Part shown: positions 3,009 through 64,000 of the stretch, in pieces
Layout: every line of letters starts with the position of its first letter
Position numbering within the stretch: the stretch's first letter is position 1
IMG/VR virus record: IMGVR_UViG_3300037455_000543
Coordinates: 360,164 to 424,163 of that record
Length of the DNA stretch: 64,000 nt
Direction: 5' to 3' (one strand)
From: a virus
Taxonomy: Duplodnaviria > Heunggongvirae > Uroviricota > Caudoviricetes
Notes under the pieces: model-generated
What the model saw: only the letters and a program-made list of their open reading frames with translations
Database searches by the model: none
What the model was told of the DNA's origin: nothing
Program-made: the position numbers and the translations under genes

Positions 3009-3419
3009 ATGTATCTGTTCAGAAGAATTAGCGAAGAAAAGAATTTGACCAAAGGTGGTCGTGGTCGTGTTGATATTTATCAGTCTGTGCATGCTGATTT
3101 GAATTATCTTATTGGCTGTGCAAAGAGTAATGTGCATAGTCTTGATGATAGTTTGCCGAATTGGCATGTTCATGTAAAGGAACCTGACCAGAAGTATCAT
3201 CCTGGCTGTGTATTCTGTTCTGAAGGCTTGACTACATTCTATAGTGGCTTCGGAACTAGGGAAGACGACAAGTATGAATGTAAGACAAAAGTTTTCATTT
3301 TCAATACAGACTATATTCCGAACAATATGATTAAGGAAATTGATGAACAGGATATTTCGTTCATTCCCTATTATGAACATGGCAAATCTCCAGATCAAAT
3401 TTATGCTGAAACAAATTAA
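3009..3419 (+). CDS. hypothetical protein
   Basis: ORF with GAGGAG SD. Confidence 0.7.
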   Translation: MYLFRRISEEKNLTKGGRGRVDIYQSVHADLNYLIGCAKSNVHSLDDSLPNWHVHVKEPDQKYHPGCVFCSEGLTTFYSGFGTREDDKYECKTKVFIFNTDYIPNNMIKEIDEQDISFIPYYEHGKSPDQIYAETN

Positions 3420-27964: not shown

Positions 27965-28300
27965 TTGAACCACATATTAAAGTCTGATTCCTCGGAACGA
28001 AGACCAACTCAATGGAATTGTCGGTAGAGGGTTAGCCATTTTATATCTGGGTTCAAGGTATACTTGAACGGTTTTAGGCCGTTAAATGAATGAACAGTGA
28101 CGTATAGATTAGCAACCTATACATATAGCCGCCATGGCTTGACATGATATAGCCGAAGTACAGGATGACCGCCTCGTAAGCATGTCAGTAAGTCCCAAGA
28201 GATTGACACCATGAAGCTTTATGCCAAAAGTGACCAATCGCCTAGTTCCTGCTAGGCTTAGATCTCTCCCAATCGCATTATCCAAAAGAATGATGTTTAT
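27965..28300 (+). ncRNA. candidate structured non-coding RNA
   Basis: Follows hairpin-promoter; no credible ORF, raised GC, several hairpins. Confidence 0.4.
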
Positions 28301-54722: not shown

Positions 54723-54837
54723 GCGGAAAGTAGCTCAATTGGTAGAGCAGAAGTATTATGTTACTACCCGCTACACGCAAAGGTTGTTCCTATTAATGGG
54801 GAACTTTGGGTTGTAGGTTCGAATCCTGCCTTTCCGC
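54723..54837 (+). tRNA. tRNA body (Pro/His-like) with permuted UUCCUA motif inserted in anticodon loop
   Basis: Acceptor, D and T arms intact; ~48-nt insert between GAAGT and ACTTT. Confidence 0.7.
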
Positions 54838-59842: not shown

Positions 59843-59953
59843 GGGGAAATAGCTCAGTGGTAGAGCAACGGTATTACGTTACGTAGTGATGCATATAACG
59901 TTCCTATTTCCATTTCAAGGCGTGTGTCGTAGGTTCGAGTCCTACTTTCCCCA
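59843..59953 (+). tRNA. tRNA body with permuted UUCCUA motif inserted in anticodon loop
   Basis: Perfect acceptor/D/T arms; insert TA CGTTA C GTA-GTGA-TGC ATA TAACG TTCCTA. Confidence 0.75.
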
Positions 59954-61464: not shown

Positions 61465-61794
61465 ATGATAACAGTGACACAAATTAACGATTTAAGAAAA
61501 GAGACTCAGGTTAGCATGCTTCTTTGTAAGCAAGCTCTTGAAGCAACAGGTGGTGATTTCGATGCTGCAAAAAAGTGGCTTCGTGAACAAGGTAAAGAAG
61601 TTGCTGGGGATTCATCTGCTTTTGGATTCACATTGATTAAAAATGGACAAGTTTCTGAACAGAGTACAGATAATAAGTTCACTTATTCCGACGGCCATAC
61701 AAGTATAGATATTCGCAATTATGGAGGTTCTACACCTTATACCATATGGGGCGGAATAACTGGACAGATAGTCCTTAATCCCGTAAAAGTATAA
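61465..61794 (+). CDS. protein with EF-Ts N-terminal (UBA-like) domain
   Basis: ITVTQINDLRKETQVSMLLCKQALEATGGDFDAAKKWLREQG. Confidence 0.8.
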   Translation: MITVTQINDLRKETQVSMLLCKQALEATGGDFDAAKKWLREQGKEVAGDSSAFGFTLIKNGQVSEQSTDNKFTYSDGHTSIDIRNYGGSTPYTIWGGITGQIVLNPVKV

Positions 61795-62790: not shown

Positions 62791-62938
62791 TTGGTGTTCT
62801 CCTTAAATTATATATTATTTATAAAAAATTAATTTAAGGGGTTTACAAAAAGAAAATAAATTACTATATTTAACATCGTTAAAACAAAAAACAAAAACAG
62901 GAAAAAATTTTTTATATATAATATAAAGGTTAAGAAAA

Positions 62939-63040
62939 ATGACTAAGTTTGTAGTTGACACTCATGATTGCAAGACTCGCCGCGACGGACGAGGTTTCGG
63001 CAAGCATGATAAGGATCGTTACCTACACAGGGTCATCTAG
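62939..63040 (+). CDS. leader peptide 4 MTKFVVDTHDCKTRRDGRGFGKHDKDRYLHRVI
   Basis: D5 R5 K4 G3 H3; precedes terminator and Asp/Arg/Lys/Gly tRNAs. Confidence 0.85.
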   Translation: MTKFVVDTHDCKTRRDGRGFGKHDKDRYLHRVI

Positions 63041-63065
63041 TATTAAACTGTATAAAGTTTTAAAG

Positions 63066-63103
63066 AATGATTCCTGTGTAAAAACGGGAATCATTTTTTA
63101 TTT
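63066..63103 (+). terminator. attenuator terminator 4
   Basis: AATGATTCCTGT/ACGGGAATCATT + T-run; competitor TACACAGGGTCAT (63024-63036) pairs with 63067-63080. Confidence 0.85.
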
Positions 63104-63177
63104 GGTCTCATTGCCTAGTGGTCTAAGGCGCTGGTCTGTCTAACCAGTTTTCGTGAGTTCGAATCTCACTGGGATCG
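63104..63177 (+). tRNA. tRNA-Asp(GTC)
   Basis: CTGGT-CTGTCTA-ACCAG; G73. Confidence 0.85.
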
Positions 63178-63188
63178 CTACAAACAAA

Positions 63189-63251
63189 ATAGCATAAGAA
63201 GTTCCTATTAAAAAATACAGACTGCAAATCCGTTAATATACTTCTCGCTAT
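63189..63251 (+). ncRNA. UUCCUA motif copy with Cys-type (CTGCAAA) anticodon loop
   Basis: ATAGC ATA AGAAG TTCCTA...ACAGA-CTGCAAA-TCCGT...TA CTTCT C GCTAT. Confidence 0.7.
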
Positions 63252-63255
63252 ACTT

Positions 63256-63331
63256 GGGGCCGTAGCTCAATTTTGGTTAGAGCACCGGACTGTCACTTCG
63301 GAGGTTGAGGGTTCAAGTCCCTTCGGTCCCG
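63256..63331 (+). tRNA. tRNA-Asp(GTC)
   Basis: CCGGA-CTGTCAC-TTCGG. Confidence 0.9.
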
Positions 63332-63339
63332 TTAAATAT

Positions 63340-63419
63340 ACACCAGTAGCCGAGCCTGACTACGAATCAGGTACACGTAACTGGAGCTGAAAATGCAGGT
63401 TCGAACCCTGTCTGGTGTA
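63340..63419 (+). tRNA. tRNA-Arg(ACG) with rearranged D region
   Basis: Perfect acceptor, CCTGA-CTACGAA-TCAGG and T-arm; only 8 nt before anticodon arm, 23 nt after. Confidence 0.7.
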
Positions 63420-63430
63420 CTAAAAAATAT

Positions 63431-63485
63431 GCGGTGGGAGTTTTACTAATTTCTCGTGTCCGACACCGGGAAGATAAAAAATTAG
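63431..63485 (+). ncRNA. repeated pseudoknot element, copy 1
   Basis: GCGGTG GGAG TTTT ACTAAT TTCTC GTGTCCGACACCGGG..ATAAAAA ATTAG. Confidence 0.6.
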
Positions 63486-63568
63486 ATTCGCCAGCTCAGC
63501 GAATTCAAACAAATGAGTTTCTGGAGTTTGTAGGTAGCTTCTGTCCAAAACCAAAAACCTTCGCCTAT

Positions 63569-63643
63569 GCCTCACTAACTCAATTTGGTTAGAGTACCTG
63601 CCTCTTAAGCAGGGAGTTCAAGGTTCAAGTCCTTGGTGGGGTA
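63569..63643 (+). tRNA. tRNA-Lys(CTT)
   Basis: CCTGC-CTCTTAA-GCAGG. Confidence 0.9.
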
Positions 63644-63647
63644 CTAT

Positions 63648-63704
63648 GCGGTGAGAGTTTTGCTGGCTTCTCGTGTCCGACACCGGGCAGATAAAAAACC
63701 AGCA
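63648..63704 (+). ncRNA. repeated pseudoknot element, copy 2
   Basis: Same core with covarying TGCTGG/CCAGCA. Confidence 0.6.
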
Positions 63705-63709
63705 TTTAT

Positions 63710-63783
63710 GCGGTAGTAGCTCAACTGGTAGAGCACCGGATTGCCATTTCGGAGGTTTGTGGGTTCGAGACCCATCTACCGCT
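63710..63783 (+). tRNA. tRNA-Gly(GCC)
   Basis: CCGGA-TTGCCAT-TTCGG; U73. Confidence 0.9.
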
Positions 63784-63792
63784 TTAAAATTT

Positions 63793-63865
63793 GGATCTAT
63801 ATGTCAATGGTTCAGACGAGGAAACTCTTAATTTCCGGATTCCCGTTCGACTCGGGATAGGTCCA
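63793..63865 (+). tRNA. tRNA-Lys(CTT)
   Basis: GGAAA-CTCTTAA-TTTCC. Confidence 0.85.
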
Positions 63866-63876
63866 CTAAAATATAA

Positions 63877-63947
63877 GCACCTATGGTGTACAAGTAGCAA
63901 GTCGCATTGCCTGTGCGAAGGAGACGGGGCAGTACCGTCTAGGTGCT
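63877..63947 (+). tRNA. tRNA-Gly(GCC), atypical T-loop
   Basis: TCGCA-TTGCCTG-TGCGA; T-loop GGCAGTA; U73. Confidence 0.75.
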
Positions 63948-63956
63948 CTAAAAATT

Positions 63957-64000
63957 GCCTTATTGTTGTATTGGCTTAGCAAGCGATCCTTCCAAGTTCG
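63957..64000 (+). tRNA. tRNA-Gly(TCC), cut by window end
   Basis: CGATC-CTTCCAA-GTTCG. Confidence 0.6.

Follow-up and report, generated by a model that had tools for sequence, protein, structure and literature searches.

How a phage might control an array of transfer RNA (tRNA) genes, and how far the codons of a short reading frame upstream can tell which tRNA genes the array holds, are the questions raised by the last kilobase of the DNA stretch analyzed here. This stretch (the window; 64,000 nucleotides, nt) is the final 64 kb of a 424,163-bp IMG/VR virus record (IMGVR_UViG_3300037455_000543, G000:C1:360164-424163) and ends within an array of tRNA genes, referred to below as operon 4, which is headed by a short open reading frame (ORF). 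The record belongs to a giant T4-like phage of the rumen, with a T4-type major capsid protein (Pfam Gp23, 228.6 bits), a terminase, and a G+C content of 35%. Its first 127 nt are identical to its last 127 nt, so that the sequence closes on itself; the ends are direct terminal repeats according to IMG/VR, with a CheckV completeness of 100%, and because of this terminal identity the tRNA array of operon 4 continues at the record start. Window positions 62842-64000 and the first ~275 bases of the record probably form a single tRNA operon under the control of a ribosome-mediated (leader-peptide) transcription attenuator, an interpretation supported, at the level of sequence, by codon statistics, a conserved antiterminator, and co-variation of leader and array in related phages.

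Leader codons and the tRNA genes of operon 4

The upstream part of the locus contains a promoter, a putative ribosome-binding site (RBS), and the leader ORF.

62842..62870 (+): sigma-70-like promoter, TTTACA and TATATT with a 17-nt spacer (10/12 in a consensus scan)
62925..62929 (+): Shine-Dalgarno-like AAAGG, 9 nt before the ATG, read from the sequence, with a putative role in ribosome binding
62939..63040 (+): leader ORF of 33 codons plus TAG, MTKFVVDTHDCKTRRDGRGFGKHDKDRYLHRVI, read from the sequence and presumably translated

The ATG lies 69 nt past the -10 element of the promoter. Relatives of this locus were all taken from a promoter-motif scan of IMG/VR, which returned 114 loci on contigs of up to 415 kb, and 11 distinct orthologues of the operon-4 leader were aligned; the ORF is conserved in these 11 relatives, all of which keep the ATG and the AAAGG 9 nt upstream of it. 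BLAST found no match to the promoter-leader-terminator stretch in GenBank phages. Within the genome, the promoter motif (GGGTTTACAA..TTACTATATT) heads 13 sites, including five of the six other tRNA-array leaders, array E being without it.

The codons of the leader mirror the tRNA genes behind it, and are as listed in the first-pass annotation of this DNA. All four Lys codons are AAG and both tRNA-Lys genes have the anticodon CTT; Arg is mostly encoded by CGN (CGC, CGC, CGA, and CGT, plus one AGG); the Gly codons GGA, GGT, and GGC have matching genes in a tRNA-Gly(GCC) within the window and a tRNA-Gly(TCC) across base 64000; Asp occurs five times, and two tRNA-Asp(GTC) genes are found by both ARAGORN and Rfam; His occurs three times (CAT, CAT, and CAC) and Cys once (TGC). 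The residues Asp, Lys, Arg, Gly, and His (D/K/R/G/H) make up 20/32 of the leader against a background of 0.263 in the long ORFs of the phage (binomial P = 1.9e-5). Read in frame, 15/32 codons match the array's own tRNAs as called by ARAGORN at default settings and 19/32 do so when an Arg-ACG gene is included, with 2/31 and 5/31 in the other frames.

The genes of operon 4 follow in the order Asp, Asp, Arg(ACG)-like, Lys(CTT), Gly(GCC), Lys(CTT), Gly(GCC)-like, Gly(TCC), and His(GTG). Up to the hairpin that ends the operon, the genes are exclusively tRNA and tRNA-like, and a protein gene comes after that hairpin.

63104..63178 (+): tRNA-Asp (GTC), ARAGORN; Rfam 55.9 bits
63179..63254 (+): conserved module GCAUAAGAAGUUCCUA ... 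UACUUCUCGC with a Cys-type CUGCAAA stem-loop, its frame kept and its insert variable in relatives
63255..63332 (+): tRNA-Asp (GTC), ARAGORN; Rfam 66.3 bits
63340..63420 (+): tRNA-Arg(ACG)-like gene, non-canonical, ARAGORN at the relaxed threshold -ps80 only
63569..63644 (+): tRNA-Lys (CTT), ARAGORN; Rfam 61.1 bits
63710..63783 (+): tRNA-Gly (GCC), ARAGORN; Rfam 61.7 bits
63793..63866 (+): tRNA-Lys (CTT), ARAGORN; Rfam 51.5 bits
63877..63948 (+): tRNA-Gly(GCC)-like gene, non-canonical, ARAGORN mitochondrial mode only
63957..64000 (+), on to window-equivalent 64030: tRNA-Gly (TCC), 5' part in the window, completed by circular closure and sequence; Rfam 50.8 bits
window-equivalent 64041-64112 (L001:168-239) (+): tRNA-His(GTG), by circular closure; Rfam 51.9 bits
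L001:240-275 (+): operon-end hairpin with a U-run, 12 bp, -12.4 kcal/mol, z -5.0

The first-pass annotation had forecast from the leader that a tRNA-His gene would lie just past base 64000, and the gene is present: tRNA-His(GTG) starts 41 nt beyond the window end as the last gene of the operon and is the sole tRNA-His among the 50 ARAGORN-called tRNA genes of the genome, which are spread over seven arrays. Across these arrays, an amino acid found at least three times in a leader has a tRNA in the array concerned in 21/26 cases (Fisher P = 4e-13), so that the three His codons give ~80% odds of a tRNA-His under the model, compared with a base rate of ~22%. ARAGORN and Rfam scans of the record start recover only Gly(TCC) and His in the continuation, which is not dominated by amino acids absent from the leader; the accompanying suggestion of a tRNA-Cys or of more tRNA-Arg downstream was not borne out by these scans. 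The same two genes, Gly(TCC) and His(GTG), are the final pair in either order in 14/14 related arrays of the same type that reach the array end, and the junction therefore does not depend on circular closure alone.

The expected reader of the Arg CGN codons, a tRNA with the anticodon ACG, is encoded at 63340-63420, but in a non-canonical gene that is recovered only at a relaxed threshold and is missed by Rfam (no match at E<=5). The CCUGA-CUACGAA-UCAGG arm of this gene is perfect, and both T-arm and acceptor stem are present, but the D region is aberrant, a D-loop-like sequence being shifted to the 3' side of the anticodon arm; relatives carry canonical Arg(ACG) genes at the same array position. 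In the Gly(GCC)-like gene at 63877-63948, the acceptor stem is 7 bp long and the anticodon loop reads UUGCCUG, while the T-loop is unusual.

A link between the single Cys codon and the array was considered and rejected. The Cys-type loop reported in a motif at 63189 does exist, as CUGCAAA on an imperfect 5-bp stem at ~63215-63231, but it is not part of a tRNA, the insert that carries it varies among relatives, and Cys11 of the leader is not conserved; since this residue is C, F, or V in relatives, it is probably not one of the codons that the leader senses. The surrounding module at 63179-63254, placed between the two tRNA-Asp genes, has a conserved frame (UAGCAUAAGAAGUUCCUAU ... UACUUCUCGCUAU), and its insert in ten distinct versions, that of the window included, is a Cys-type anticodon stem-loop in 5/10, an unrelated 22-nt stretch in 3/10, and a T-arm-like hairpin in 1/10, so that the module looks like a cassette carrying tRNA pieces. 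A further element of ~60 nt is present twice in the array, at 63425-63500 and 63647-63709, with no other copy in the window. Its copies have an exact 19-mer in common (UCUCGUGUCCGACACCGGG) and a flanking stem that differs between them in a compensatory manner (CUAAUU/AAUUAG and GCUGG/CCAGC), and the start of the second copy nearly repeats the 5' end of the tRNA-Gly that follows it.

Leaders and arrays across the genome and in relatives

The correspondence seen in operon 4 recurs throughout the genome, where a short ORF and a U-run hairpin stand ahead of 7/7 tRNA arrays, the conserved promoter being present at 6/7. In a 7 x 7 leader-by-array table, the true pairing comes top of 5,040 permutations at the amino-acid and the codon level alike, and 30 of the 31 combinations of array and amino acid are found in the array's own leader. 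The match extends to synonymous codons. For isoacceptors that are split between arrays, 37/38 leader codons can be read by the array that follows, with 21.3 expected from phage codon usage, a result reached in 0 of 2,000,000 simulations; the splits concern Lys AAG (operon 4) and AAA (array C), Arg CGN/AGA, Gln CAG/CAA, Ile ATT/ATA, and Ser AGY/TCN. The one exception of the 38 is AGG31 of the operon-4 leader, which lies inside the antiterminator strand described below and is read as structural, like the CAC before it. Complementarity between leader end and terminator arm is significant in 4/6 of the other paralogues; the simple duplex test was not significant for arrays C and D, whose antiterminators, if any, lie elsewhere.

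Comparison with relatives suggests that leaders track the tRNA gene content of their arrays. The core of the operon-4 peptide, RRDGRGFGKHDKDR, is kept in 8/10 relatives, with G for D in L086 and L113 and a diverged, Ala-rich core in L055, and changes outside the core fall mostly within the D/K/R/G/H set (K12D, D16G, Y28H, and L29K/R, besides Cys11 to F or V). In relatives that carry tRNA-Gln(CTG) and tRNA-Cys in the Trp/Leu array, the leader of that array (MKSLSLQCQLLSSSLLSWCLL...) has two Gln and two Cys codons; the Trp/Leu-array leader of the present genome has no Gln and no Cys codons, and the Tyr-array leader of the phages with Gln and Cys tRNAs in their Trp/Leu array is without Cys and has a single Gln, at codon 2. 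Similarly, the G-type array of L055 starts with two tRNA-Ala genes, and its leader contains eight Ala codons.

Some of these relatives differ from the present phage in their surroundings. The divergent G-type operon of L055, with its Ala-rich leader (reverse strand; leader at 3044-3157 of the reversed locus), has a protein-coding insert of ~0.8 kb between the first and second tRNA-Ala genes, reminiscent of segB in the T4 tRNA cluster, and tRNA-like fragments after its tRNA-Lys. Most relatives (L039, L041, L052, L062, L068, L071, L077, L086, and L113) have a tRNA-like gene ~70-150 nt upstream of the G-type leader and no promoter there; this gene has a 4-nt anticodon loop and is reported by ARAGORN as '???' with the anticodon ca or aa. 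Judging from this arrangement, the attenuator in these relatives would lie within a longer transcript.

Terminator, antiterminator, and the proposed switch

Between the leader ORF and the first tRNA gene, which starts at 63104, lies a predicted intrinsic terminator, whose 5' arm can pair alternatively with the end of the ORF.

62942..63013 (+): putative sensor codons 2-25, 16/24 of them D/K/R/G/H, delimited by blocked-footprint folds of the shortened transcript
63024..63038 (+): antiterminator 5' strand UACACAGGGUCAUCU, leader codons 29-33 and the first base of the stop, pairing with 63064-63080
63061..63100 (+): predicted intrinsic terminator, 17-bp stem, 6-nt loop, and U6 tail, -20.5 kcal/mol, z -9.0, also found in a terminator scan

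The antiterminator fold (-17.5 kcal/mol, z -4.25) uses as its partner the terminator 5' arm at 63064-63080, which makes the two structures exclusive of each other. When the transcript is cut at the terminator loop and the ribosome is given an assumed footprint of 28 nt, the antiterminator forms with the ribosome (A site) at codons 16-25 and is lost with the ribosome at codon 30 or at the stop. In the 11 orthologues, 98.1% of antiterminator positions are paired, a figure that falls to 32-52% if the partners are displaced by 1-3 columns; double-sided changes occur at two pairs (AU/GC and CG/UA, 7 cells), and the observed values were reached by 1/500 shuffles. The terminator is conserved among relatives only in its inner ~10 bp. 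The structural hallmarks of a leader-peptide attenuator are present together at this locus: a leader ORF with a putative RBS, codon enrichment, a terminator, and an excluding antiterminator that overlaps the ORF end.

On these grounds, the following course of events is proposed. A host-type RNA polymerase would initiate at the TTTACA/TATATT promoter and a ribosome would translate the 33-codon leader. Quick decoding of the Asp, Lys(AAG), Arg(CGN), Gly, and His codons would bring the ribosome to the last codons and the stop, where it would cover UACACAGGGUCAUCU and let the 17-bp terminator form, so that transcription would stop 3-6 nt upstream of the first tRNA. Slow decoding of any sensor codon between codons 2 and 25 would leave this strand free to pair with the terminator 5' arm once that is made, which would block the terminator and allow the polymerase to read into the tRNA genes from Asp through His(GTG). 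Because the products of the operon are the tRNAs that read the sensor codons, such a switch would exert negative-feedback control of supply, slow sensor codons opening the operon that supplies their decoders; the likely trigger would be a shortage of usable host tRNA during infection. Leader-peptide attenuators are established reporters of the decoding speed at chosen codons, as in the hisL speed assay (PMC4046918), and pheA is de-repressed 6-7-fold on the loss of one tRNA-Phe gene, attenuators thus responding to tRNA gene dosage (PMC3082878). A natural variant that bears on the scheme is the Tyr-array leader at L034:4197-4292 (identical in L053 and L035), whose ninth codon is an in-frame TAA (MTHQLYTY*CSSICGCSTSSIYGMYIIKTGG); such an early release of the ribosome would, on the model, free the antiterminator and yield a naturally de-repressed operon, unless the stop is read through.

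Several observations weigh against an attenuator at operon 4 or limit the form that it can take. The minimum-energy fold of the full leader keeps the terminator at every ribosome position tested; a purely thermodynamic switch is ruled out, since only co-transcriptional (truncated) folds give the alternative, and the switch must therefore be kinetic, as in classical attenuators. The antiterminator is also predicted to form without any ribosome, so that the predicted default of the untranslated leader is read-through, unlike the super-attenuation of the trp type. Twelve of the 32 leader residues (T3, V3, F2, C, Y, L, and I) have no tRNA in the operon's own array, and the Arg(ACG)-like and second Gly(GCC)-like genes may be non-functional. 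The leader of L055 keeps three His and three Gly codons, yet its array yielded no tRNA for His or Gly. As the orthologues are closely related (82% mean column identity), covariation lends modest support, and leader translation, termination at the hairpin, and stalling-driven switching are all steps that we infer.

The closest competing explanation accepts the attenuator and assigns it another natural signal, such as amino-acid starvation, the general translation state of the host, or an infection timer, with the codon match only tuning which operon opens. Any leader-peptide attenuator responds to the supply of charged tRNA, whatever limits that supply (PMC3082878), and the structural evidence fits this explanation equally well; extra tRNA, however, gives no relief from amino-acid starvation, which would leave the feedback without purpose, and the synonymous split (AAG against AAA, CGN against AGA; 37/38) follows isoacceptors and not amino acids, just as leaders follow the movement of tRNA genes between arrays. 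It is accordingly regarded as unlikely. That the open frame is there by chance, in a G+C-richer patch beside tRNA genes, has next to no probability: short ORFs are common and the 12/32 unmatched residues would suit such an origin, but the composition, pairing, and synonymous-codon tests reject it statistically, and a chance ORF would account neither for a leader conserved in relatives nor for the correct forecast of tRNA-His.

Two further explanations retain the conserved leader and dispense with codon sensing. The small ORF might encode a functional basic micropeptide, or be translated only for the stability of the 5' leader or its protection from Rho, the hairpin serving either in processing or as a leaky terminator that works constitutively, and the codon match being a by-product. 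The conservation of RRDGRGFGKHDKDR in most relatives and the position of the hairpin next to the tRNA 5' end, the site of RNase P cleavage, would agree with this; it is nonetheless quite improbable, as seven unrelated peptides all mirror the anticodons of their own arrays, down to synonymous codons, the end of the ORF is overlapped by the conserved antiterminator, and substitutions stay within D/K/R/G/H or track the array (K12D, D16G, L29K/R, and the Ala gain of L055), which argues for selection on composition and not on fold. An RNA-only switch that binds tRNAs directly in the manner of a T-box, with an incidental open frame, would be in keeping with the general knowledge that T-box leaders likewise gate translation-related genes through a terminator and an antiterminator. 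At 62800-64000, however, Rfam gives no match to the T-box or any other riboswitch family even at E<=5, the signal is frame-specific and involves many codons for five amino acids where a T-box uses one specifier codon, and the start codon with its AAAGG is retained in all relatives; such a switch is very improbable indeed. The leader-peptide attenuator sensing the supply of its own tRNAs remains the preferred interpretation of operon 4.

Known systems, genomic context, and significance

The enterobacterial leader-peptide attenuators (thrL for Thr and Ile; the ilvGMEDA leader for Ile, Leu, and Val; hisL; trpL; pheL) provide the nearest parallels. These likewise have a short translated leader rich in regulatory codons, one leader sensing more than one amino acid, an intrinsic terminator before the regulated genes, and an antiterminator strand that overlaps the ORF end and is masked by the ribosome at the stop. 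They differ in that they regulate enzymes of amino-acid biosynthesis, whereas the genes regulated here would be tRNAs, and in that the leader described here would sense five amino acids with a resolution down to isoacceptors (synonymous codons), no anti-antiterminator of the 1:2 type is predicted, and the system is phage-borne, with seven paralogous copies that partition the code. The pheM leader attenuator of the E. coli pheST operon, which encodes Phe-tRNA synthetase, is an example of leader-peptide attenuation acting on a part of the translation machinery needed for the codons that are sensed; its target is a synthetase and its signal a single amino acid, whereas here the product would be the tRNA itself, with direct feedback on decoding. 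The T-box riboswitches (RF00230) also sense tRNA status and choose between terminator and antiterminator upstream of translation-related genes, but do so with a single specifier codon and need no ribosome, whereas the element described here is predicted to be a translated, multi-codon leader; the window contains no T-box (RF00230) match at the gathering threshold. The scope of classical attenuators, which covers biosynthesis or synthetase genes, does not include operon 4, where the textbook mechanism would be placed on tRNA genes. In full-text literature searches, no account of tRNA genes controlled by leader-peptide attenuation was found. A possible older precedent would be attenuator-like leaders at pheU/pheV of E. 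coli, on which a text search brought up nothing of relevance.

Phage T4 resembles the present phage in its Gp23 capsid protein, its Rnl1-type ligase, and its clustered tRNAs, between which small non-tRNA RNAs and homing-endonuclease-type inserts occur. T4 has, however, one ungated cluster of 8 tRNAs, with no leader ORF and no terminator in the 97 nt upstream of the first tRNA (Gln), whereas the present phage has seven presumably gated arrays with 50 ARAGORN-called tRNAs, and operon 4 has a promoter, a leader, and a terminator instead of the T4-type ungated arrangement.

Other features of the window include a full-length match to the cow-rumen-2 RNA motif of Rfam (108.5 bits) at 28096-28200 (+), and a 109-amino-acid ORF at 61465-61794 (+), between tRNA arrays 3 and 4, with an N-terminus similar to the domain through which elongation factor Ts binds EF-Tu at its own N-terminus (Pfam EF-Ts_N, 29.6 bits, slightly below the cut-off of 33.2 bits). 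Rfam tRNA matches of 114 nt (54724-54837) and 111 nt (59843-59953), each across the whole model, are tRNA genes that carry inserts of ~40 nt, a length insufficient for a group I intron. Outside the window, the record encodes a T4 Rnl1-type RNA ligase (G000:C1:100082-100684, 67.4 bits), an RtcB-type RNA ligase (G000:C1:127380-128444, 184.5 bits), and a transfer-messenger RNA (G000:C1:123310-123660) with the tag ANTYAMAA; the two ligases and this RNA could have a role in tRNA repair or in joining the odd tRNA pieces of the arrays.

Phage tRNA genes are usually viewed as constitutive helpers in codon usage or as spares against tRNA-cleaving defences. More speculatively, the seven attenuators together may act as a phage-encoded, isoacceptor-resolved monitor of host decoding capacity, in which each operon would be an on-demand replacement set, switched on only when its own codons are slow, and sensing would be combined with tRNA replacement and repair; this is a tentative proposal, less likely to be right than wrong, and repair is included in it because Rnl1-type and RtcB-type ligases are also encoded. 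The trigger in such a monitor could be host anticodon nucleases that cut tRNA-Lys, the Asp/His/Asn/Tyr group, or tRNA-Arg, or alternatively the decay of host tRNA after shut-off, and the whole, if true, would represent a counter-defence logic without earlier description.

For operon 4 itself, an attenuator that puts out the tRNAs decoding its own sensor codons would control decoding capacity by direct feedback and would extend a textbook mechanism to a new gene class. The model is predictive, in that tRNA-His, a gene not yet seen, was called correctly from the leader alone, and leaders of this kind could help with the annotation of odd or split tRNA genes overlooked by standard finders. For synthetic biology, the model also provides compact sensors of translation speed that are specific to chosen codons.

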